Shown here piece after piece: positions 319-58,926 of a DNA stretch of 64,000 bases (position 1 is the stretch's first letter; every line of letters begins with the position of its first letter). The position numbers were made by a program, and so were the translations under genes. The DNA lies in the IMG/VR virus record IMGVR_UViG_3300033149_004566, positions 1-64,000 of that record. One strand, given 5' to 3'. Origin of the DNA: a virus. The notes beneath the pieces are model-generated. The model worked only from the letters and a program-made list of their open reading frames with translations, was not told the origin of the DNA and did no database searches.

Positions 319-526
319 AAAAAAAATAAATTAGACCGCGGCTTTTTTACGCCGCTTTTTCGTATACTTTAACGGAACGGCTATTGCATAACCGTTCTCT
401 ATGAGCTGCAGCACTTTTTTGGCCGCAAGTAATAATTCGACGAACGTCGATGTATAATTGGACTTTAGCGATTTTGATGTCGTTTCTAGCTTCGTCAAGC
501 AGCCGAAAGCGGCATCAAAATCGAAC

Positions 527-1249
527 TTATACGACTTTTTTTTTGACATATTCAATGAATTCCTCGACATTCTTGAATTCTTCTTGCTTTCTTTCTTTCG
601 GGGCTTTTAAAGAACCCCAACAGAATAGAAAACCGCCCGGATGCGTGAACCAACCCGGCAAGTTTAGCTTGCTCAAGTCGGGCTCGTTTTTTCCCGGAAA
701 CCTGGATATGCCGATGTTATTCCCGTCGGCATATATCATGCCGGTACATCCGAGCTTTGGGCCAATCTTTCTGATGAGCGGATGATGACGGCCCTCATTG
801 ATAAGAAATTCCCATCGGCCTATCTTCACGCGCTTCATCTTTTTTATTTTCTCGGCTGCTTTGTGCTCTTTATTTTTTAGTATTGTTAGTCCCTGCATCA
901 CCGGATGGAAAAACTTCACGATATCGAAGTCGTTCCATCCCATTGCTTTTAATGCATCTATGAAGATTGCAAAATCCGTGTACCTACCGGTATTATCACG
1001 ATGTACAACGGATTTTACAAATTCTTCCGGGTACATGTCTTTGTACGAGCAGACGGCAGCGTCGCCATCCGGATGCTTGTTTGCCTTTATGTCCACCGGA
1101 ATTTCATCCGGTGATCTTTTATTGTAATCCGCCGGAACGAACAAAATGTTTTCCAGCGGTAATTCATTTGCCATGGCACATGCCAATACGGATGCGACAT
1201 TATCGGCATCGACATTGACATGAGTTATAATCTTTTTTATCTTTACCAC
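527..1249 (-). CDS. Divergent DHH/MYG1-like phosphoesterase-fold protein
   Basis: N-terminal IITHVNVDAD and C-terminal WFTHPGGF resemble MYG1/DHH motifs. Confidence 0.45.
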   Translation of the reverse strand: MVKIKKIITHVNVDADNVASVLACAMANELPLENILFVPADYNKRSPDEIPVDIKANKHPDGDAAVCSYKDMYPEEFVKSVVHRDNTGRYTDFAIFIDALKAMGWNDFDIVKFFHPVMQGLTILKNKEHKAAEKIKKMKRVKIGRWEFLINEGRHHPLIRKIGPKLGCTGMIYADGNNIGISRFPGKNEPDLSKLNLPGWFTHPGGFLFCWGSLKAPKERKQEEFKNVEEFIEYVKKKVV

Positions 1250-9525: not shown

Positions 9526-10509
9526 TCATGCCTTTTTGGACAGCAGTTTCCACTGATAATATTCGTCCAGCTTGGAATCCAAGTCCAGAAAACAGTCCGT
9601 GCAAAGGCCGTGCATGCGAACCGTCCTACAGGACGGAACGACGTAATTTCCGACTATGCTCTTGAGCTGATCATCGGTAACGCGGGAATTATAATCCCTC
9701 CAATGACCCATGCCGTGCAACTTTTTTATCAGGTCTTTGATGCCGCACGGCGTGAGTTGCCCGGTGTAGAGCAGGTAGACCGTCATCATCCAGCGCGCCC
9801 AGTGCACCGGGTTGTCCGTGCCGAGTATGGATCGTTCGATGCACGGCGGAAGAATCAAGTCCTTAAAAGAAGCCGTATCGGAGCCCGCCATCGACAGAGG
9901 CTCCATGTCGGGATAATTTTTATCCCACGATGAAAGATCGACCAGTTTCTTTCCGATCACCGTGATCTTTCCGCTCGGAGTTCTTGCAAGTTTCAAGACA
10001 TGATCTTTGCCGGCGTAAAGATCGTCCAACGTGACGGGCACGCAATAAAGCCCGGACTTCAAGTGTACCGTGAACGGCACGCGCGCCATCTGGCTCAGGT
10101 CTCCCTTGATGTGAAAATCATTTGACTTCAAATCCAGTTTTTCCTCGACGTGAGCCACGTAGGATCTAAGAGCATTTTTTTTATTCACCGGTTCCGTGCA
10201 CCACCTGTAATGGTGGAATCCTTTTCTTCCGGAAAAAAAATTCACGTGCTTGATGCCGTCATCAATGGCATCGAGTGTCAGCTTGATGGCGTCGTCCAGC
10301 GCGCCCTCACCGTCCAGATCGAAGAACACTTTATCAACCACTGCCGTGGGATAGGTAGCCCGTAGGTGATTGGCTTCACGAAAGCCGTACACCGTGACGT
10401 AACAATGCTTGCCGCCATTATACTTGTTGATGAGATCCATCATTTCTTCCCTGGATCTGACCAGCACGCGTTTTGGGAAGCCGACTTCCCTCGGAAAAAT
10501 ATCATACAT
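9526..10509 (-). CDS. Archaeo-eukaryotic primase (PriS-like catalytic domain fused to PriL-CTD-like Cys domain)
   Basis: FFDLD, SGRKGFH, GDLSQMARVP; C-terminal LPPCI..HWAR..PSC...GLC..C; start trimmed to MYDIFP. Confidence 0.85.
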   Translation of the reverse strand: MYDIFPREVGFPKRVLVRSREEMMDLINKYNGGKHCYVTVYGFREANHLRATYPTAVVDKVFFDLDGEGALDDAIKLTLDAIDDGIKHVNFFSGRKGFHHYRWCTEPVNKKNALRSYVAHVEEKLDLKSNDFHIKGDLSQMARVPFTVHLKSGLYCVPVTLDDLYAGKDHVLKLARTPSGKITVIGKKLVDLSSWDKNYPDMEPLSMAGSDTASFKDLILPPCIERSILGTDNPVHWARWMMTVYLLYTGQLTPCGIKDLIKKLHGMGHWRDYNSRVTDDQLKSIVGNYVVPSCRTVRMHGLCTDCFLDLDSKLDEYYQWKLLSKKA

Positions 10510-11296
10510 TGAAATCAATGTCGTTATCTTTTCTGCATTGCTCGAAACAGGGACAGCCTTCCATCCACCTGCCATCTTTTAACTGCCTCGTGAAGCAATT
10601 ATAACCGGGCTTTGGCGAAAACTCACCGCGCTCTATCGCACTTATCACCTTATCTCTAGATTTCAAAGCATAGGTCTTCGTGACTTTTTGCAACGGCTCG
10701 AATAACACGACGTTATCCCGCGGATACACGCAACATATAAACTTCACCGGTTCTTTAAATTGTTTTTCCATCGCTATGGAATACAACGCCAGTTGCTTCT
10801 TGGTGTCGCCTATCAATTTTCCGTCCTTTGGAGCGTGCCCGGTTTTATATTCGGTGGGATGTAAAGAACCATCATAGGCCCTATCTATCCTGTCTATCTT
10901 GCCCTTCAACCTTATGTCCTCGTCCTTGAAATACAACTCGCAAGCCACGGGATACCAATATTCGTAAACATCGAGCCCCATCTCGCGAATTTCCATCAGT
11001 CTCGTGGTTTCCATCATGCAGAAATTTTTTATCATGGGGTCGTCAACGCGCTTGGGAATGATCTTCTTGAAAGTCTCGAGAAAATACTCGTAAATTTCTC
11101 TTTCGGTCACCAATTCTTTGAGATGTTTGATGTTGATCGCGGGAAAAAATTGCTCGTATGCGTCGTGTATTATTATACCGTCCATTGCTATTTCCGGCAT
11201 GTCGTATTTCATCTTGTCTATGTACAGGTACTTGTACTTCATCGGACACTGCAAGTACGTGAAGATTTCCGTCTTGCTCACGGCATCGACTCTCAT
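10502..11296 (-). CDS. Cas4-like/RecB-family PD-(D/E)XK exonuclease
   Basis: CPMKY, GKIDRID, EYKTG, QLALYS and three C-terminal Cys. Confidence 0.85.
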   Translation of the reverse strand: MRVDAVSKTEIFTYLQCPMKYKYLYIDKMKYDMPEIAMDGIIIHDAYEQFFPAINIKHLKELVTEREIYEYFLETFKKIIPKRVDDPMIKNFCMMETTRLMEIREMGLDVYEYWYPVACELYFKDEDIRLKGKIDRIDRAYDGSLHPTEYKTGHAPKDGKLIGDTKKQLALYSIAMEKQFKEPVKFICCVYPRDNVVLFEPLQKVTKTYALKSRDKVISAIERGEFSPKPGYNCFTRQLKDGRWMEGCPCFEQCRKDNDIDFNV

Positions 11297-39268: not shown

Positions 39269-39420
39269 TTCCGGGTCTACTTTTGGACGATAAATCGCTT
39301 TTCACACTCCTTACAGGTTATGATCAAATGTTTCGGGCCGTCGGACGTTGACGTGACCTCGATGTGGAACGCGTCGCAGCCGCAGTAGGGGCACTTAATT
39401 TTACCACGCATCACTTTCAA

Positions 39421-49934: not shown

Positions 49935-50320
49935 TTGAAAAGGGCATGTGCCCTATTAGAGCCCCACATAGAGCTAAAAAAATACGTGCCATGATTTCCG
50001 AGTTTGGATTTCGGATAGGCGACCCCGAGCTCAGATCTCCTTTAACTATGGACTTGCTTTTGAAAAATAGAGAAAAAATTCAAAAACAAATTGCCGAAGA
50101 AACGTCAGAAACTGCTCTGGAAATGCTGAATAAATCTCTAAATAAATTGAATGACAGGATAAAGTATCGCGAGGAAATGTTGCGGACGGTTTTATATCCG
50201 AAGGGTAAAGTTCCTTTCTCGATACAAAAAAAGTTTCCGATGTCGTTCTGGTCTACTAAAGGTGGGTTGAGAAATGTTCAAACGGTTGGTGTGAGAAGGC
50301 GTGGACGTAAGAAGCATTAG
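49931..50320 (+). CDS. Hypothetical protein
   Basis: Overlaps terminase start. Confidence 0.6.
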   Translation: MIEKGMCPIRAPHRAKKIRAMISEFGFRIGDPELRSPLTMDLLLKNREKIQKQIAEETSETALEMLNKSLNKLNDRIKYREEMLRTVLYPKGKVPFSIQKKFPMSFWSTKGGLRNVQTVGVRRRGRKKH

Positions 50321-51989
50321 TCCGTTTTTGGATGATTTTCTAAAAAAATACGATTTCAAGGGCATGGATGATAACAGAATCATGAAGATGCTCTTGTCGT
50401 CTTTAGATTGGTCTACGTTTGCGGAAACGTGGTTTAGAAACCCAATAGATCCCACGCTACCATTAAAATTGGAAAAGTTTCAGCGCCGCATCATAAATTA
50501 TTTTCAATACGGCAAGTGCAGTAACATAATTGTCAAGTGCCCCCGTCAATTTGGTAAAACCACTCTCATATCGATATTGTGTAATTTAATTGCCATTTTT
50601 GATCCGGGTGCTAAGATAGGCCTATTTTCTACATCACACGACCAGTCCAAGGAGATATTGGGTAAGGTCAGGAAATTCATGAGAACGTCGGCATTTTCTT
50701 ACTTACTTGACGATAAAAGCGTTCAAACGCAAACCGAAATAAATTATAAGGATCCTCGCGGCCTTGGGCATGGGTGCAGGATTAAAGCGTATTCTAGTTC
50801 TGGCAAAACCGTTCGTGGCCCCGATTTGACTTACACGTTTATGGATGAAATGGGCCAAATGGACGACGACTTCGTAAATCAGGTTGTCCGTCCGATGGGA
50901 AGGGCTGTTGGAAAGAAAGAACTCGGGGCAAGCACTCCTTTCGGTACGAGGGGCGAGTTTTGGAACTCACATGAGAAGCCGTATCATTGGGAATGTCAAT
51001 CGTGTCATGCTAAGGGCTTTGATGAACCACACCCTTACACGTGCCCGAAATGCGGCGGTTCAGTTCAGACTCTTGGCCAATATAAAGTGTTTGATGTTTC
51101 ACCTCTTGACGTGTCTTGGATCACGCCCGAAAAACTTGCGGCAGAAGCTGCACGTCTCGGCCCGATTGCAGCGCAACAGGAGCTGTTTGGAGAGTTTATC
51201 CCGGCCGGAGATACTTATTTTAGACACGACTGGATAGTGAATGCCAGGGTTTTCACGCCAGAGCAAAATTCAAGATTTTCATCCATGGGAAAACCGTATT
51301 ATACCTATTATCTTTCCACGGATTATGGTAAACAACGTGATAGAGGCGTGATCATGATAGGCCATTTTCAGGATGACGTGTTGTATCTGGATTGGGTCGA
51401 ATCACATCTAAAAATGCCGTATCCAAGATTTCAAGATAGAATGAAAACTCTTTGTGATAGATATAATGTTTCAGAGGCCATTTTGGATGGGAACGGTGTC
51501 GGAATTGCTCTCATAGATTATCTCCGCGAGGACGTGCAGGTGCCGATTTTTACCAACAAGCCCGATTTGGGCCCCGGATATAAGTACGGTAACAAGGAGA
51601 AATTTCAGATGTTGGAAGCTCTTGCCAACATGTTGATACGGAAGAGAGTTCGTTGGCCGTATCATGAAAATCACTCTGACCCGAGGCAGGAAATGTATGA
51701 GTTATACATGATGGAGCAGGAGCTCATCAATTATTCTTATGAATGGGGAAAATCGTCAATCATAATGGGAACTCAGAGCGAGCACGACGATAGGGTCATG
51801 GCTTTGGCACAGCTCGTTGGGGCAACAATGATGACACATTTTGACGATGTCATGCCGTATGGGGCTTCTGACGTGTCAAGAGATGATCGCGGATGGCCGG
51901 TTTTTGACGAGGTCGGGGAAGAATTTGACGTGATGTGGGTTGATAACACGACGGATCCGGAGTACGAAATATATGACACCATCTTCTGA
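50301..51989 (+). CDS. terL: Terminase large subunit
   Basis: PRQFGKTT, TFMDEM, ASTPFG, STDYG, LDGNGVG, HDDRV. Confidence 0.93.
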   Translation: MDVRSISPFLDDFLKKYDFKGMDDNRIMKMLLSSLDWSTFAETWFRNPIDPTLPLKLEKFQRRIINYFQYGKCSNIIVKCPRQFGKTTLISILCNLIAIFDPGAKIGLFSTSHDQSKEILGKVRKFMRTSAFSYLLDDKSVQTQTEINYKDPRGLGHGCRIKAYSSSGKTVRGPDLTYTFMDEMGQMDDDFVNQVVRPMGRAVGKKELGASTPFGTRGEFWNSHEKPYHWECQSCHAKGFDEPHPYTCPKCGGSVQTLGQYKVFDVSPLDVSWITPEKLAAEAARLGPIAAQQELFGEFIPAGDTYFRHDWIVNARVFTPEQNSRFSSMGKPYYTYYLSTDYGKQRDRGVIMIGHFQDDVLYLDWVESHLKMPYPRFQDRMKTLCDRYNVSEAILDGNGVGIALIDYLREDVQVPIFTNKPDLGPGYKYGNKEKFQMLEALANMLIRKRVRWPYHENHSDPRQEMYELYMMEQELINYSYEWGKSSIIMGTQSEHDDRVMALAQLVGATMMTHFDDVMPYGASDVSRDDRGWPVFDEVGEEFDVMWVDNTTDPEYEIYDTIF

Positions 51990-52746
51990 CTTGCGGCCGA
52001 AAATATCCCTTTTTACGTTATTGCCTTACGTGATTCAGGAGCATAAAGCCAAGCGTGCCGGCTTACACTACGACTTTCGCGTGAAGCGCGGCGAAAATGA
52101 TTGGGAATCCTGGGCGATAAGAAAGGGATTTCCGAAAAAGCCCGGGATAAAACATCTGGCCGCACCGACGCCGAGTCATGATGAATATTGGGCAAAATTT
52201 AGCGGCGTCATACCCAGGGGTTACGGCTCCGGTAGACAGAAAGTCGTTGAAAGCGGAAAAATAGACGTGATAAGGGAGCGAAAGAAAAAAAATAAATCGA
52301 TTACTTTCAAAAAGGGAAAAGATTATTACACCATGATAAAGTTAAAAAAGGGAAAAAATTGGTTGATTTTTAAAAACGAGTCGGTGAAGTGGCGCAGGAC
52401 GAAGAGCGGGGGCAAATTTCCGAAGATCGATGAGATGGAAAAGGGAATGCCAAAAATGACGAACAAGCAATATAAGGAGTTTTACAAGCGGATGTTGGAC
52501 TTGGGCTTGTTGAATCAATATAAAACGATTGGTAAGCCCATAAAACAGGATCATGGGGGCATACCCATAATAGAAGATGGAATGTCGGCTCTTTCGGCTT
52601 ATCCTACAGCTATAGGGGAAGTGTGTCCGAAATGTGGACACCCGGAAATAAAAACGTGGCAGCGTCAGACTAGATCTGCTGACGAACCGATGACGCAGTT
52701 TTTCAGATGTGTCAGGTGCGGATATACCTGGAGGGAATACGATTGA
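51973..52746 (+). CDS. LigD-type 3'-phosphoesterase fused to TFS/TFIIS C-terminal zinc ribbon
   Basis: VIQEH..LHYDFR..SWAIRKG..HLA....H...FSGVIPRGYGSG; CPKCG..QRQTRSADEPMTQFFRCVRCGYTWREY. Confidence 0.88.
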   Translation: MTPSSDLRPKISLFTLLPYVIQEHKAKRAGLHYDFRVKRGENDWESWAIRKGFPKKPGIKHLAAPTPSHDEYWAKFSGVIPRGYGSGRQKVVESGKIDVIRERKKKNKSITFKKGKDYYTMIKLKKGKNWLIFKNESVKWRRTKSGGKFPKIDEMEKGMPKMTNKQYKEFYKRMLDLGLLNQYKTIGKPIKQDHGGIPIIEDGMSALSAYPTAIGEVCPKCGHPEIKTWQRQTRSADEPMTQFFRCVRCGYTWREYD

Positions 52747-53054
52747 GCGTGACGTATAACGGTTACACGGCAATACAGCCGAGAGTCATGTTGAAAGAAT
52801 ATATTAAGAGGACAAATAATATTCCAGAAAGACGCGATGATAAATATGATAGAAATCCGAAAGGAAAACATGCTAAATTAAAAACAAAAGAACCGAAGAG
52901 ACCCAAATATGATAAGAGTAATAGTAAGCCCGGACTTACCGATGATCAGATTCGTGGAAACCCGAAGGATTGGAAAAATTATACGATCGTGTTAAAAAAT
53001 GTCAAAAAGATGCCGAAAATGGTTTTTGATCAATATGAGAGGTGTAGGGTTTAA
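52707..53054 (+). CDS. Basic hypothetical protein
   Basis: ORF between PE-TFS gene and portal; start uncertain. Confidence 0.5.
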   Translation: MCQVRIYLEGIRLSVTYNGYTAIQPRVMLKEYIKRTNNIPERRDDKYDRNPKGKHAKLKTKEPKRPKYDKSNSKPGLTDDQIRGNPKDWKNYTIVLKNVKKMPKMVFDQYERCRV

Positions 53055-54865
53055 TGGACGACGAATATGACGCATGGATGGACGTGTACAAGCCGGAAAG
53101 AGTTGAAATTGAGAATTATGAAGATATAAATGATCTTTCTAATAGCATCGTGTCCATGGAGGTTGGGTACGAAGTTGCCATAAATATAGAAGATACGGCA
53201 CAGGAAGACGTCAATTGGTATTATCAAACGCAGGACGAAGAAATACGCCGCCTGAAAAGGCATCTCATTAAAAAAACACCGCAAAATTTGAGTTGGGCGT
53301 TTTGGGAAGATGATACTGCACAAGCATTTGCCATGGTTATAACTTATACTATAATAGGTGATGGCATAAGAGTGCGACCGAGAAAGGACGGCTTGAAGAA
53401 AAAGAAAAAAGAAAAATTAGAAAGAATTATAGATGATTTCAATAACAATATCAACGAACGCGGAGAAGACGTGTATGATATAATTCATCAAGCCGTGATA
53501 GGTAACGTGATACATGGAAAACAATTATTTAAAAAGGTGTTTAGAAAAGATCCGTACACTGGAAAGGAATATTTGTCTCTTTATGAAATAGACATGAGAA
53601 CCATATCTGAACTTGTAAATCCCATTCATGGATACAGGAAGTTCGTGCAGGATCATTACATTAATGAAGAATTGCGCGACATTGATAGAAAAACATTCAT
53701 GGAAACGTACGATCCTTTTATAAATCCGGAAGATAAAAAAGTGATTAATATGGGAATTGCGAGGCACAGGGTTCCGGTTTATGATAATGAAGTTCTTTTC
53801 TTTAAATTTTATAAAAAGCCCCCAATGAGATCTATTGTTGATCTAATAGTTTATAAAAAATGGATTTATTATTTCATGAAACAGGCCGCCAAAGTTAGGG
53901 GCGTTCCGCCTCCAGTAATTACCGTTGGCAATCAGCAGAGCCATCCGACTTCACGTGATTATCCAAAGTATCTAAAAAGGGCCGCTCAAATTGGTGGAAA
54001 ATTAAAAAATTGGGATGCCCTTTCGATGCCTTGGAATTGGGCAGTACAGTGGATGGAAGGTGGAAGGCCGTTTGATTTCACGCCACATCTTCAATTTATC
54101 AATAGGAGAATTGTTTTCTCATTGCTCGGTTCGATATCTCTCTTGGAAGGCGCATCTGGAGAGCTTCATGGCCATGTCATAGAAACGGTTTGGCTTCGTG
54201 TAATTTCAGCATTTAGAAGAAAAATAGCTAGGGTGTTAGAAAAGTGCTACAATGAAGTACTCAAGATGAATGGCATCAACGAGGAAGTTGTCATTGAGTG
54301 GACGCCTTTACGTGAGCCCATTAGTAAAGCTGAAATTGCCGCGATATTATCATCGTTATTCCAATTGAATGCTCTGAAGGATGTTAATGAGTTACGTGAA
54401 TTATTTTCAAAGAATGGCATAATAGATTTGTCTCCGATGGATGAAGATGAAGAAGAAAAAGGCTACGCTGGTACCGGAGTTGAAGAATTGATAACGTCGG
54501 TTATGCCGGTACAAATGGAAAATAAAATATTAAAACAAAAACTCGAAGAATTTAGTAAAACTGGCGATTTCAATAGAAAACAAGTTCACGTGAAAAATTT
54601 AAAAAGAAGCCTGTCGATGTTGAACAATTCTTTGGGAACTGAACAGGCAAGACCCGAAAAAGCCGTGAAAAAACCGTCGATAAAAACTCCCATGAATCCA
54701 AAACCGGATTCACTTGGTCATTCATCTTTGAAGATACCATCTTTGAAGGTAAAAAAGGAAGGACAGCAATACATGGAAGCATCATCCGACGATGAAAGCA
54801 CGTGTTATGAGGAAGACGGCGTGAAAAAAGGATATTGCCCGGAGGAAATAAAAAATGGAAAATGA
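53054..54865 (+). CDS. Portal protein
   Basis: Size and position between terL and MuF; helical pattern with EVVIEWTPL near the end. Confidence 0.75.
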   Translation: MDDEYDAWMDVYKPERVEIENYEDINDLSNSIVSMEVGYEVAINIEDTAQEDVNWYYQTQDEEIRRLKRHLIKKTPQNLSWAFWEDDTAQAFAMVITYTIIGDGIRVRPRKDGLKKKKKEKLERIIDDFNNNINERGEDVYDIIHQAVIGNVIHGKQLFKKVFRKDPYTGKEYLSLYEIDMRTISELVNPIHGYRKFVQDHYINEELRDIDRKTFMETYDPFINPEDKKVINMGIARHRVPVYDNEVLFFKFYKKPPMRSIVDLIVYKKWIYYFMKQAAKVRGVPPPVITVGNQQSHPTSRDYPKYLKRAAQIGGKLKNWDALSMPWNWAVQWMEGGRPFDFTPHLQFINRRIVFSLLGSISLLEGASGELHGHVIETVWLRVISAFRRKIARVLEKCYNEVLKMNGINEEVVIEWTPLREPISKAEIAAILSSLFQLNALKDVNELRELFSKNGIIDLSPMDEDEEEKGYAGTGVEELITSVMPVQMENKILKQKLEEFSKTGDFNRKQVHVKNLKRSLSMLNNSLGTEQARPEKAVKKPSIKTPMNPKPDSLGHSSLKIPSLKVKKEGQQYMEASSDDESTCYEEDGVKKGYCPEEIKNGK

Positions 54866-55266: not shown

Positions 55267-57525
55267 ATGATACCCGTGTCCGTATTGATGGAACCGCCCA
55301 AGGTGGTAAAAGATCCTTTAAAATCATCGTCATTGATAAAGTCATTCGTGATGATGAATAAAATGAAATTTAAGGGTCTGGTTCCAAAAATAATGGACGC
55401 TATCAGGCAATCCAGGCGCGTTGTTCAGATGGAAACCGGTGCACGATATCTCAAGAGATACATCGATAACATGTTATATAATAGCATTGTCGATCCGCAT
55501 TTATTGGATAGGATGAAGTCATTCGTGGAAAACACGTATATTCAACACTCTAGAATGTTGCAAGAAGAATTGTATAAATTGAAGATGGTTCCCACGACAA
55601 TGGCCGTCATGACTCCTACTGATGAGGACAGGGTAGAGGATAGAAAGGATACTATAGAAAAAATGGCAAGCCTGGAAGCCGAACGCTTGAGTGCGAGGAT
55701 TCATGACATAATAGATAGGGCTTATCATAATGCCGAACCGTTATACAAAATAAAAAAAGAACTACAAAAATCCATAAAAGTTAGCAAGAAAGAATCCGCT
55801 AGAATTGCCAGAACCGAGCTCATAAAAACCATGAACTTGGCCAGGTTGGAACGTATGACTTCATCGGGGATCGAATATTATCAGTGGGTTTCGGCTCCTT
55901 CGTTTGATGAGAGATTGTGTCCTTTATGTGGCGAATTAAATGGAAAAGTAATAAAGTTGGGCAGGTCGTTTTCGGATTTAGTGCGAAACGAATCATCCAA
56001 GAAAATAATGGGAACTAGACAGATCTATTATCCTCCGGCACATCCGAATTGCAGGTGCACTATAAGGCCATCTTATGCTCCGGTAATTACCAGGCCGTTA
56101 AAAGAACCGAAATTTATAAAGAAAATATTCGATAAGTTTCCTGGCTTGAGGCCCAAAACCTTGATAACACAAAAGATCGGCCCGACTTCGATAGATATCA
56201 TACAGGCGGAAGAATTAGAGGACTGGCACGAATTGCACGATTTATATTTAAATGAATCGAAAAGATGGGGTGGCGATCTTCGTAAGCGATTGATATATCA
56301 GGCGATGGAAGCAAAAAATAGGGCAATGAAGGAAGACATAGAATTATTCGAGCGCGATAACTTGGAGGAAATGGAAAAGCCGAAATGGACGCATTATCCT
56401 TTAACAAAAGATGAAATTTATTATCATTATGCGCGAAATTGGGATAAATTGTATCCGGAATTGAAGGGCCGAAGAGTGGCGATCCGTAACCGCAGGGGCG
56501 TCATTTTACGTAATTGGGAGCCCGGTGGAAAGCCCATAGAAATAAAAAATAAAAATGATTTAAAAAAAGTAGTCTATAATAAAAATGCGGTTGAATTGAT
56601 TCCGGAGTTGAGCACCAAAAGGATGAAACCATCAAATACAAGAAGGTTTCTCGTGGATTTAGATTCAAATAGACCGATAGACGAGACGGTTGTCAAAAAA
56701 ACAGTTGAAAAAATGAAAACGCTGCCGGTCAATAATGTTCAGGTTATATTTTCCGGGAAGCGTGGATATCACGTTAGAGGTGATACAAAAAAGAGTTACA
56801 CGTGGAAAAAAGCGAGAAAAATGCTTCGTGAGGCGATGAAGCCTCTATCAGAACAATACAATGATATAATTTTTGATTTATCACCCATGAAAAGACGTGG
56901 AGTTAGTGTATCTCCTTATAGTTTGAGATATTTGCCGACAGAAAGACAGGGCGTTGCACATCACGTGCAATTTGAAGAGTGGTATGAAAAGGGTGCGTTA
57001 GGCACGCGGGACATAATTCCGGAAAAATTAAAATTGCCTAGCGGAAGAAATGCTTTCTTCAGGAAAACGTTTCTTGGCATCCAAAAACGAAAGTTGTATA
57101 CCGAACAGGAATATAAATTGCAGGCGGCTTTACCGATCATATCGGCATTGAAACACGATCTCGATTTATCCGATTCGGTACAAAAAGAAGCGAAAAGGAT
57201 ATTTAAAAAGGCTTATAGTAGCGGGATAACACAGGGTAGAAAAACATCGTCCAATGCCGCGGTATCTGTTTACAATGCCATGAGATCGTTGGGAATGAGC
57301 AGGCCGATAAAAGATTTTCTTCCGCATGCAAATGTAAAGACCGGATCTTTTGTCAGGGCGGTTAAAAAATTTCAGGACGCTTTAAACTTGCCAAAATTTA
57401 AAGTCGGAAAGCGCGCCGACGTGGAAGAGGCAAGAAAGTATTATAAAAGCATGAAACGTACCGGTATAAGCAAGCGTAAAGTTGCAAGAATGTTTGGCGT
57501 GTCTCCGTCGAGTATAGGTGATTAG
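55267..57525 (+). CDS. MuF/SPP1 gp7-like head protein carrying LigD-polymerase, TFB-core and HTH domains
   Basis: RIARTE, CPLC..LNG, PPAHPNCRC; TKDEI..Y, VDLD, SGKRGYH, IIFD, SPYSLR; cyclin-fold segment EAKRIFKKAYSSGITQGR..AAVSVY. Confidence 0.85.
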   Translation: MIPVSVLMEPPKVVKDPLKSSSLIKSFVMMNKMKFKGLVPKIMDAIRQSRRVVQMETGARYLKRYIDNMLYNSIVDPHLLDRMKSFVENTYIQHSRMLQEELYKLKMVPTTMAVMTPTDEDRVEDRKDTIEKMASLEAERLSARIHDIIDRAYHNAEPLYKIKKELQKSIKVSKKESARIARTELIKTMNLARLERMTSSGIEYYQWVSAPSFDERLCPLCGELNGKVIKLGRSFSDLVRNESSKKIMGTRQIYYPPAHPNCRCTIRPSYAPVITRPLKEPKFIKKIFDKFPGLRPKTLITQKIGPTSIDIIQAEELEDWHELHDLYLNESKRWGGDLRKRLIYQAMEAKNRAMKEDIELFERDNLEEMEKPKWTHYPLTKDEIYYHYARNWDKLYPELKGRRVAIRNRRGVILRNWEPGGKPIEIKNKNDLKKVVYNKNAVELIPELSTKRMKPSNTRRFLVDLDSNRPIDETVVKKTVEKMKTLPVNNVQVIFSGKRGYHVRGDTKKSYTWKKARKMLREAMKPLSEQYNDIIFDLSPMKRRGVSVSPYSLRYLPTERQGVAHHVQFEEWYEKGALGTRDIIPEKLKLPSGRNAFFRKTFLGIQKRKLYTEQEYKLQAALPIISALKHDLDLSDSVQKEAKRIFKKAYSSGITQGRKTSSNAAVSVYNAMRSLGMSRPIKDFLPHANVKTGSFVRAVKKFQDALNLPKFKVGKRADVEEARKYYKSMKRTGISKRKVARMFGVSPSSIGD

Positions 57526-58093
57526 ATTGCCGATAACAGTAAAAATGAGCTCTTTAAAATTAAAAAGGTTGATTCCACAGGCAATATATCATATAAAAAG
57601 CGAAGCCGCGCAAATATTGATGTTTAGCATAATAGAAGTTTTCATGCAACAGGGACTTCCGGATGAACAATGGAAGCAGTTGTCGGCGATAACTGTCGAG
57701 AAAAAACACTCCAGATCTATTTTGATAGATAAGGGATTTTTGATGAACTCCATTACGGTTGGGCCAATCGATGTTGATAAACCCGTGGAAGTTGGAATAT
57801 TTGAAGGGCCCGCTCTCAGGTATGCTTGGATACATGAGTTTGGTGGCACGATTCCGGTTACTGACAGCATTAGAAAATTTTTTATAGCAAAGACCGCAGA
57901 AGAACGAAGACAACGTCCAGGATTGCCTGAAGATTCTTACACGTGGCATCCTTTGAGAAATGATACTAACGTGATATCAATTCCGGCAAGACCCTTTATG
58001 AGGTGGGGCGCCATCATTGCACGTCCTAAAATTAGTAAAATGGCTGAAAGAGTTTGGTATACGATGATTAATCAGGGATTGATAATTAAATGA
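57518..58093 (+). CDS. Phage virion morphogenesis protein (Mu gpG-like)
   Basis: W..LS..T, ILIDKG.L..SI, YAWIHEFGG, IPARPFM. Confidence 0.85.
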   Translation: MIRLPITVKMSSLKLKRLIPQAIYHIKSEAAQILMFSIIEVFMQQGLPDEQWKQLSAITVEKKHSRSILIDKGFLMNSITVGPIDVDKPVEVGIFEGPALRYAWIHEFGGTIPVTDSIRKFFIAKTAEERRQRPGLPEDSYTWHPLRNDTNVISIPARPFMRWGAIIARPKISKMAERVWYTMINQGLIIK

Positions 58094-58926
58094 AAACATT
58101 ACCCATTTATACGTTGCAAGACACTCTAAATCCTGAAATTTGGATAGGAGATGGTAAAAATGCAAGATTGCGAAAAAAAATTAAAAATGTCATCATGGAT
58201 TCCGTTCGTAAATCTTTGGATAAATACGGTGGTAAGCCAAAGCGTATCATCATCGTTGGCTCCTCTGTTGCTTATAGATGGCGAAAAGACGGTGATATTG
58301 ACGTACACGTTGAGGGAAAATTTCCCATCAATGACTATGAGGTGGACGAATATAAAATACCCGGATCAAAATTGACTATAGAGGTGGTATTAACCAATCA
58401 AAAATTTCCCAGTACAACGCGCGCTGAGGGCGTTTATAACGTGGTGATGGATAAATGGATTAAAACTCCAGAACGATTTCCGGGCAAGGTTTATTGGGAT
58501 CCATTAATAGAGGAAGCGTCTTCATGGGCTAGAAAGGTGGATCTCGATATGGGCGAATTAAAACGCGATCTTCTCGAATATATTTTATATAAAGAGAATG
58601 GCGGCGACGAGTCTGCCCTTGCAAGAAAAGCCGACGAAATAAAATCCGATTTGAATAGCATTGTTGATACTTGGGATGCTCTAAAAAATGAAAGAACGAA
58701 GGCACTTTCCGGCGATTCCGACGACACGAGGTTTTTTAAAAATCCGAGCAAGTCATCCATGTTGCAACCGGAAAATTTGATATTTAAAATACTGCAGAGA
58801 TTTCAGTACAACGATTTGATGAAGCGCGTGAAACAACTCGTCAGGGATCTTCAGGACGAGACGAATTTTGATGTTATTGAGAGGATAATAACGAGATTTT
58901 TGAAGAAGGAAAGGTGGATTAAATGA
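58090..58926 (+). CDS. Pol-beta-superfamily nucleotidyltransferase
   Basis: VGSS..Y.W...GDIDVHV, IEV, GVY.....WIK. Confidence 0.75.
   Translation: MKTLPIYTLQDTLNPEIWIGDGKNARLRKKIKNVIMDSVRKSLDKYGGKPKRIIIVGSSVAYRWRKDGDIDVHVEGKFPINDYEVDEYKIPGSKLTIEVVLTNQKFPSTTRAEGVYNVVMDKWIKTPERFPGKVYWDPLIEEASSWARKVDLDMGELKRDLLEYILYKENGGDESALARKADEIKSDLNSIVDTWDALKNERTKALSGDSDDTRFFKNPSKSSMLQPENLIFKILQRFQYNDLMKRVKQLVRDLQDETNFDVIERIITRFLKKERWIK

Follow-up and report, generated by a model that had tools for sequence, protein, structure and literature searches.

A MuF-type head protein joined to a LigD-type polymerase domain and a TFB core in a tailed virus assigned to Helarchaeota

Why should a gene in the head module of a tailed virus encode, in one polypeptide, a minor head protein, a polymerase of the end-joining type and the core of an archaeal transcription initiation factor? 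This question is raised by the open reading frame (ORF) at positions 55267-57525 (plus strand, 752 codons without a stop) of the IMG/VR virus record IMGVR_UViG_3300033149_004566; the analysed stretch, called the window below, comprised bases 1-64000 of this 112,862-bp record. A first-pass annotation of the window had described the product, designated P0001 here, as a MuF protein followed by a LigD polymerase, by the linker and first cyclin repeat of archaeal transcription factor B (TFB) and by a terminal helix-turn-helix (HTH), and had proposed that the polymerase and a TFB “mimic” are delivered with the viral DNA. All of the motifs quoted in that annotation were located in the 752-residue ORF, and the three-domain architecture and the intact catalytic residues were upheld in the present study, which also placed the gene in a head module; the TFB linker, the separate HTH and the notion of a mimic were not. 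The presence of MuF, a LigD-Pol-type AEP domain and a TFB core in one polypeptide is fully supported. What this protein does can be proposed only with graded confidence, and the possible readings are weighed below.

A three-domain fusion protein

The combination of MuF, LigD-Pol and TFB was found in only three proteins among 1.84 billion representative proteins, namely P0001, P0003 (828 aa, ENA) and P0004 (795 aa, Logan), the last with Pfam matches to MuF, Pol and TFIIB as in P0001. The two relatives are 35–38% identical to P0001, and the order of their domains is the same. At 35% identity, P0003 can be aligned from end to end, and the alignment takes in the initial residues, the Cys/His motif of MuF, the helical linker, all AEP motifs and the TFB core. 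Since the N-terminus is conserved from residue 2 in both P0003 and P0004, the ATG at 55267 is supported as the start codon. Additionally, contig L108 from JGI, which holds an identical C-terminal part of P0003 and thus represents the P0003 virus, carries downstream of the fusion the homologs of the Neck1-like gene, the nucleotidyltransferase-like gene and a small ORF of the window.

An assembly chimera, or separate genes read through via a sequencing error, might be suspected in a metagenome assembly for which all of the public runs with the sequence (two DNA runs, no RNA run being listed) come from one marine-sediment study, which probably supplied the assembly, but this explanation, to which we assign a negligible probability, is effectively refuted by the occurrence of the same protein on two assemblies (112,862 and 117,419 bp), by the two relatives from other sources (ENA/JGI and Logan) with the same domains in the same order at 35–38% identity and by the uniform GC content, both overall and at third codon positions (GC3), of the three parts of the ORF. 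A chimeric assembly had been named in the first-pass annotation as one of the findings that would undo its proposal; it was looked into and not borne out, and the fusion is real.

At the same time, the three-protein family is tiny, as judged from the sequence collections searched. A scan of IMG/VR with the alignment of P0001 and P0003 detected 80 loci, each matching in the MuF domain only, and no ORF of at least 150 aa at these loci matched the AEP or TFB hidden Markov models, so that the survey of MuF C-terminal architectures proposed earlier found AEP or TFB in none of the 80 nearest IMG/VR MuF loci. Protein-guided scans of IMG/VR and of GTDB genomes with the AEP-TFB part revealed no relatives. 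The back-translated pattern of the DLSPMKRRG segment had no matches in IMG/VR and 36 matches in JGI metagenomes, among which contig L108 of the P0003 virus was the sole relative; none of its 28 matches in genomes was a relative. Megablast against GenBank phages also gave no match, near-identical records possibly lying outside the searched set.

The assignment of the N-terminal domain is straightforward. PF04233 (Phage_Mu_F) matched with an E-value of 1.2e-14 and 55.5 bits (cut-off 29.6), TIGR01641 (SPP1 gp7, NCBIfam) with 56.4 bits (cut-off 39.65), and many PHROG families of head-morphogenesis and minor head proteins match the same stretch. The PPAHPNCRC motif, previously placed at about position 56050, occupies residues 256-264 (nt 56032-56058). 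The domain is followed by an acidic 90-residue segment (pI 5.4) without a match to known families, modelled by AlphaFold2 (AF2) as three helices, in which EELEDW and WGG.LRK are conserved in the three fusion proteins only; this segment may serve as a hinge or a cleavage region.

For the polymerase part, P0001 scored below the thresholds of both LigD_Prim-Pol (PF21686) and ligD_pol (TIGR02778; E 1e-5, far under the equivalog cut-off), and an exhaustive phmmer search of the representative proteins with residues 295-600 was performed for this reason. It returned 37 hits, headed, after P0001 itself, by P0003 (1e-65) and P0004 (1.5e-41). The next matches after the fusion proteins were a stand-alone Prim-Pol protein and polymerases joined to a ligase, to a phosphoesterase or to both; they included P0005 (1e-18), P0006 (ligase and Pol, 8e-18), P0008 (ligase, Pol and phosphoesterase), P0011 (Pol and phosphoesterase) and P0012 (Pol and ligase). 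Among the remaining 26 hits, PF21686 was present in 23 and the LigD phosphoesterase in 6, and none contained MuF or TFIIB. In an alignment of 23 sequences, D464 and D466 were invariant, G500 and H502 nearly so, and the motif III block DLSPMK...YSL was shared. The profile built from this alignment matched, in the PDB, the Methanocella paludicola non-homologous end-joining (NHEJ) polymerase 5dmu (3.8e-19), as well as the LigD-Pol domains of Pseudomonas (2fao) and Mycobacterium tuberculosis (2iru) and Prim-PolC, with D464/D466, S496-H502, D537 and SPYSLR aligned on the catalytic motifs of 5dmu and 2fao.

The structural comparison pointed in the same direction. The AF2 model of residues 295-600 had a mean confidence score (pLDDT) of 83.6, mostly exceeding 90 in the catalytic core, and the top 14 Foldseek rows obtained with it were all NHEJ polymerases, either LigD-Pol or Prim-PolC, with E-values from 3.5e-9 (5dmu) to 6e-7; CRISPR-associated (CAPP) Prim-Pol and PriS ranked only after them, and the M. 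tuberculosis PolDom structures 2r9l and 4mky were among the top fold matches. The DLD, SGKRGYH, third Asp and SPYSLR motifs announced in the first-pass annotation are thus all in place, and the fold check that it had suggested gave NHEJ polymerases as the nearest folds. On the combined grounds of alignment and model, the domain is confirmed as a LigD-Pol-type AEP with intact catalytic residues.

The C-terminal part, which follows a poorly modelled connector, contains the EYKLQAAL segment (residues 615-622) in a cyclin repeat. PF00382 (TFIIB repeat) matched residues 617-703 with an E-value of 3e-12 and 46.8 bits (cut-off 23.6), rising to 52.3 bits for the isolated C-terminus, and phmmer against the PDB placed residues 617-710 on the first cyclin repeat of the Pyrococcus woesei TFB core (1d3u_B/1ais_B, E 1.7e-7), the match to human TFIIB being much weaker. 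The AF2 model of residues 590-752 (pLDDT 82.9) consisted of five helices followed by three, and the top 29 Foldseek rows were all TFIIB or TFB, in agreement with the first TFB repeat previously outlined at about 57100..57390. In the VIA superposition, model residues 22-163 were fitted to residues 1102-1284 of 1d3u_B, from the complex with TATA-binding protein (TBP) and the B recognition element (BRE)/TATA DNA, with a Z score of 17.3 and a root-mean-square deviation of 2.7 Å; 140 residues were aligned at 26% identity, up to the last residue. All structural rows from the ESM Atlas belonged to TFB/TFIIB clusters, and since these are spread over many phyla, archaeal and eukaryotic, they carry no host signal; feature scores there were below 0.8 and serve as leads only. 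No short relative of the TFB part was detected by a word-based search.

Three details of the earlier description of this region had to be changed. Beyond repeat 1, P0003 and P0004 have about 80 residues and P0001 has 42, which align to the last part of the tail of the two relatives (ARKYYKSMKRTG-ISKRKVARMFGVSPSSIGD); about 35 residues (H1'-H2') present in P0003 and P0004 are missing from repeat 2 of P0001. In both relatives this repeat is complete, and Pfam reports two TFIIB stretches in P0004. What had been taken for a terminal HTH module therefore corresponds, according to the P0003/P0004 alignment, the AF2 model and the VIA superposition, which together rule out a separate module, to helices H3'-H5' of a truncated second cyclin repeat. 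The supposed TFB linker has likewise been given up: residues 590-609 have a pLDDT below 50, TFB/TFIIB alignments mostly begin at the first core helix, and the stretch is best described as a low-confidence connector with no detectable B-linker or B-reader. The zinc ribbon is also absent from the ORF, which gives no PF08271 match, and nowhere in the viral genome was PF08271 found above cut-off or TBP detected. Finally, “mimic” is not the proper term, as the C-terminal domain is, by sequence and modelled fold, a true but incomplete archaeal-type TFB homolog. The features of the fusion gene and its surroundings are collected in Table 1.

Table 1. Features of the fusion protein P0001 and of the surrounding head module (positions refer to the window)
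Feature	Residues	Position (nt)	Strand	Basis
Whole ORF, P0001, 752 aa: MuF – helical linker – LigD-Pol AEP – TFB core		55267..57525	+	
MuF / SPP1 gp7 minor head domain, with CPLC (218-221) and HPNCRC (259-264)	145-266	55699..56064	+	PF04233, TIGR01641
Acidic helical linker (EELEDW, WGGDLRK)	291-380	56137..56406	+	alignments, AF2
LigD-Pol-type AEP (Prim-Pol) domain	381-565	56407..56961	+	phmmer, family profile, AF2/Foldseek
AEP motif I, LVDLDS, D464/D466	462-467	56650-56667	+	
AEP motif II, SGKRGYH	496-502			
AEP motif III, D537 within FDLSPMKRRG	536-545			
AEP SPYSLR motif	549-554			
Basic, low-confidence connector	566-610	56962..57096	+	pLDDT <50 for 590-609; no Pfam match
TFB cyclin repeat 1	~611-710	57097..57396	+	PF00382, phmmer, AF2, Foldseek, VIA
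Helices of repeat 1	613-631, 636-652, 660-674, 685-688, 692-705			
Truncated TFB cyclin repeat 2, three helices = H3'-H4'-H5'	715-752	57409..57522	+	alignment, VIA
TerL (phrog_2)		50301-51989	+	
LigD 3'-phosphoesterase and TFS/TFIIS zinc ribbon fusion		51973..52746	+	PF13298 E 8e-16, PF01096 E 1e-17
603-aa ORF in the canonical portal slot, between TerL and MuF		53054-54865	+	
Neck1-like gene (phrog_26)		from 57518	+	
Scaffold (phrog_673)		from 60961	+	
Major head protein (phrog_1650)		from 61391	+	

Possible delivery with the genome and rival readings

LigD-type polymerases fill gaps and extend ends, with a preference for ribonucleotides (NTPs), and the zinc ribbon, B-reader and B-linker of TFB are the parts that recruit RNA polymerase. 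A TFB core devoid of these three elements makes blocking or tethering a more plausible role than the redirection of host initiation that had been offered as one option in the first-pass annotation. The gene lies in a plus-strand head module with the order TerL, portal-position ORF, MuF fusion, Neck1/tail completion, scaffold and major head protein, the gene directly after the fusion being the Neck1-like one, and this location fits the published idea that MuF proteins carry cargo into the head (PMC5576092; PMC5512222). In SPP1, gp7 binds the portal, with one to two copies in each capsid, and delivery has been proposed for the C-terminal domains of MuF proteins (PMC5576092). MuF fusions and polyvalent proteins have also been predicted to enter alongside the DNA as early-phase effectors; the precedents cited are transferred primases and the N4 virion RNA polymerase (Iyer et al. 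2017, PMC5512222).

The reading that we favour, at about even probability, is that P0001 is a virion-loaded cargo protein of the “MuF-carrier/polyvalent” kind in an Asgard (Helarchaeota) tailed virus, with roles for the polymerase and for the TFB core as a tether; delivery, end repair and docking at TBP and promoters are all inferred here. Under this proposal, the MuF part would bind the portal, so that a few copies are enclosed in each capsid and leave with the DNA. In the new cell, the polymerase would use NTPs or dNTPs to fill or extend ends and gaps of the incoming genome, and would probably act with the neighbouring phosphoesterase-TFS protein and a ligase, such that the genome is sealed or circularised. 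The TFB core would dock on TBP-bound TATA/BRE DNA and, because it cannot recruit RNA polymerase, would be either a tether holding the protein, and with it the genome end, at promoters, or a competitor of host TFB, or both.

Several observations weigh against this proposal. P0001 taken alone reached 19.9 bits with PF21686, for which the cut-off is 27.4 (P0004 scored 28.3 and P0003 27.1). The 603-aa ORF in the portal slot gave no Pfam, PHROG or portal profile match and may be a very divergent portal. No match to Ku (PF02735) or to ATP-dependent DNA ligase (PF01068) was found in the 112.9-kb record, which thus departs from the complete Ku-dependent NHEJ set in that Pol and the phosphoesterase are present and Ku and the ATP-dependent ligase are missing. 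The direct terminal repeat of the record (114 bp of exact identity, 1-114 and 112749-112862) probably reflects an overlap in the assembly of a circular or permuted genome, not physical terminal repeats. In TFB and TFIIB, the H3'-H4'-H5' HTH reads the BRE (1d3u, 1c9b); repeat 2 of P0001 is truncated, its recognition helix stops after about seven residues, and canonical BRE reading by this protein is accordingly doubtful. Lastly, the host of the virus is uncultured.

The first rival places the activity of the protein within the producer cell or the capsid. MuF would bring the protein into the head, as in the case of SPP1 gp7, and the polymerase and the TFB core would mainly bind DNA or hold its end, securing or completing the packaged genome end at the portal (by fill-in after terminase cutting, for instance); after entry they would have no part in host transcription. 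LigD-Pol domains do bind and synapse DNA ends, as seen in the M. tuberculosis PolDom structures (2r9l, 4mky), both C-terminal domains of P0001 are strongly basic (pI 10.2 and 10.5), and a phosphoesterase gene lies between those of TerL and the portal-position ORF. Moreover, SPP1 gp7 itself is a portal-bound DNA-binding protein (PMC5576092). A TFB-derived domain would nevertheless be an odd choice for a generic anchor, the more so as repeat 1 (46.8 bits) has been kept in three divergent proteins, and conservation of the full catalytic set argues for enzymatic use over mere binding. We regard this possibility as unlikely, though it survives better than the remaining ones.

The arrangement of the domains suggests a second rival. 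In P0001, the AEP domain is located directly N-terminal to the TFB core, a position normally taken by the zinc ribbon, B-reader and B-linker, and could have replaced the RNA-polymerase-recruiting part of TFB; the core docked on TBP and TATA would then set the AEP just downstream, and a primer or short transcript would be made on the incoming genome without host RNA polymerase, starting replication or early expression. The absence of a TFB zinc ribbon and of TBP elsewhere in the viral genome would agree with such a promoter-directed primase-polymerase, and LigD-Pol enzymes use NTPs, some of them with primase activity. Virion-delivered primases and the N4 virion RNA polymerase again provide precedents (PMC5512222). 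At the same time, LigD-type polymerases mainly fill gaps and extend ends and are neither processive nor origin-specific primases, a DNA-melting element is not evident, and repeat 2 is truncated in P0001. We consider this rival improbable. A still more speculative version, of somewhat lower probability, is that of a self-contained promoter-guided priming machine. Here, the TFB core on host TBP at TATA/BRE would put a primase-polymerase, rather than RNA polymerase, at the start site, the capsid-delivered protein would start synthesis at promoter-like sites of the incoming genome, and the phosphoesterase-TFS protein, trimming RNA 3' ends at the secondary channel of RNA polymerase, would couple transcription complexes to DNA priming.

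It is also conceivable, though quite improbable, that the protein is not associated with the virion at all, MuF being a relic or an assembly chaperone attached to a cytoplasmic late repair or transcription factor. The function of MuF is indeed poorly understood (PMC5576092), but the gene occupies the canonical MuF slot of the head module, the synteny is kept in a virus whose fusion protein is only 35% identical, and the Cys/His motif of MuF does not vary among the relatives, P0003 retaining the Cys residues of the MuF domain.

The virus and the other genes of interest

The virus is, or is nearly identical to, a Nidhogg virus of Helarchaeota described from Guaymas Basin sediment (Rambo et al., bioRxiv 10.1101/2021.07.29.454249), and the Helarchaeota host rests on the CRISPR spacer matches of that study. 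A minor head protein and a PrimPol are named there, and the main text is without TFB, TFIIB or MuF; the tripartite fusion thus appears to be hitherto undescribed, its parts (“minor head protein” and “PrimPol”) having probably been listed separately. The three E1 homologs reported for Nidhogg viruses (bioRxiv 10.1101/2021.07.29.454249) equal in number the three ThiF/E1-like genes detected outside the window, at positions 92252-92788, 99380-99883 and 100407-101015 (minus strand) of the record. TROVE/Ro60, which is also reported for Nidhogg, was not detected in the 112,862-bp record. The minus strand carries PolB, NrdD and a C5 methyltransferase, and the genome also encodes glycosyltransferases.

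The replication block also contains, next to PolB, a second ORF of weak AEP-like character (window 9526-10575, minus strand; DNA_primase_S E 0.0015, CAPP Prim-Pol and PriS chains E ~0.03-0.04), a candidate for the replicative primase or for the “PrimPol” named in the published description. As the virus has both PolB and this second AEP-like gene in that block, the head-borne polymerase would seem to be a specialised extra copy. The only ligase candidate in the record is an RNA-ligase-like ORF of 377 aa at the far genome end, outside the window (record 112021-112461, minus strand), with a PF09414 score of 20.4 bits that is below the cut-off and a match that spans the whole profile.

Within the head module, a second fusion of an end-joining enzyme with a transcription-factor module was observed in the phosphoesterase-TFS gene, located between TerL and the portal-position ORF, two genes upstream of the MuF fusion. 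Its product has the HKAKRAGLHYDFR motif, and the RSADEP acidic hairpin is intact. In the NHEJ of bacteria and Methanocella, the phosphoesterase trims ribonucleotide tracts. The protein is a possible partner of the MuF fusion. No other protein with both a phosphoesterase and a TFS ribbon was found, and because this second fusion has no two-domain relative, a recurrent pairing of NHEJ enzymes with transcription factors is not claimed. A further TFIIS-type ribbon match, weak (E 0.007), was seen in a 47-aa open frame at window 39292-39399 (minus strand).

Two genes past the MuF fusion, a nucleotidyltransferase-like gene (NTP_transf_2, E 0.0025) occupies window 58090-58926 (plus strand). In the P0003 virus, its homolog forms the C-terminal half of a 491-aa ORF in the syntenic place (L108 207-1682, minus strand).

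Comparison with known systems

Archaeal viruses are thought, as far as we know, to be wholly reliant on host RNA polymerase and basal factors, and we know of no archaeal virus whose capsid brings in machinery for transcription or repair. A head protein equipped with a TFB core and with an end-joining polymerase that is intact would accordingly rank as the first archaeal candidate for an early toolkit of the delivered kind; it occurs in a virus of the lineage closest to eukaryotes, the Asgard archaea, and the combination suggests that polymerase and TFB machinery could enter the cell with the viral DNA. The MuF-carrier/polyvalent idea would thereby be extended beyond bacterial phages to the viruses of archaea, and to a class of cargo, a domain of a basal transcription factor, that is unrecorded in PMC5576092 and PMC5512222. 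Since each domain is small and can be produced by itself, biochemistry is feasible in spite of the uncultured host.

With MuF polymorphic toxins (Jamet et al. 2017, PMC5576092) and polyvalent proteins (PMC5512222), P0001 shares the N-terminal MuF domain, the neighbourhood of portal and terminase genes and a variable C-terminal enzymatic cargo that is proposed to be packed into the head and to reach the cell together with the DNA. Like the known carriers, it is encoded in a virion gene cluster and unites, in a single polypeptide, MuF with enzymatic or effector domains of unrelated kinds. The known cargo, however, consists of toxins (ARTs, nucleases, RelA/SpoT and others) of bacterial phages, and the host here is an archaeon. 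A MuF polymorphic toxin was considered for P0001 and rejected, because the protein carries a polymerase and a TFB core as cargo, a Neck1-like gene and not one of the immunity type comes next, and the virus is archaeal. The 2017 polyvalent-protein survey recorded Primpol modules only in conjugative elements of Firmicutes and Fusobacteria and not in phages (PMC5512222), and neither this survey nor PMC5576092 mentions TFIIB/TFB or LigD.

Compared with the NHEJ polymerases of known structure (5dmu, 2fao, 2iru and the Prim-PolC 6sa0), the AEP domain has the same fold, DxD, SGxxGxH and third Asp, the PYSLR-type motif and the N-terminal TK...YY motif, at an identity of only 13–18%; those enzymes stand alone or are joined to a ligase or phosphoesterase, whereas the fusion partners of the AEP in P0001 are a capsid protein and a TFB core. 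The C-terminal domain is closest, in both sequence and fold, to archaeal TFB, and shares the TFIIB-type cyclin repeat with the P. woesei TFB core (1ais/1d3u; 26–27% identity, Z 15.5–17.3). It differs from archaeal TFB in having no zinc ribbon, B-reader or B-linker and in the reduction of repeat 2 to its last three helices. TFB homologs of other viruses, such as rudivirus SSRV1, WyrdV1, JinchiV1 and PBV300, are free-standing (10.1101/2021.07.29.453957; PMC13700489). The closest viral folds, including giant-virus TFIIBs, are likewise free-standing proteins of ~230–560 aa, unlike the TFB core of P0001 at the C-terminus of a head protein.

The concept of proteins that enter with the genome and act first is shared with the N4 virion RNA polymerase and T4 Alt (PMC5512222), although this is a functional analogy without homology and the hosts are different. 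End-joining enzymes in the service of circularisation have a parallel, again by analogy only, without homology and in another host, in mycobacteriophages Corndog and Omega, whose Ku reportedly uses host LigD to circularise the genome, as Pitcher and colleagues are said to have described in 2006. None of these systems joins a repair polymerase to a basal transcription factor domain. The known kind to which P0001 belongs is the MuF cargo protein, and what is new here is a cargo composed of an NHEJ-type polymerase and a TFB core in an archaeal virus.

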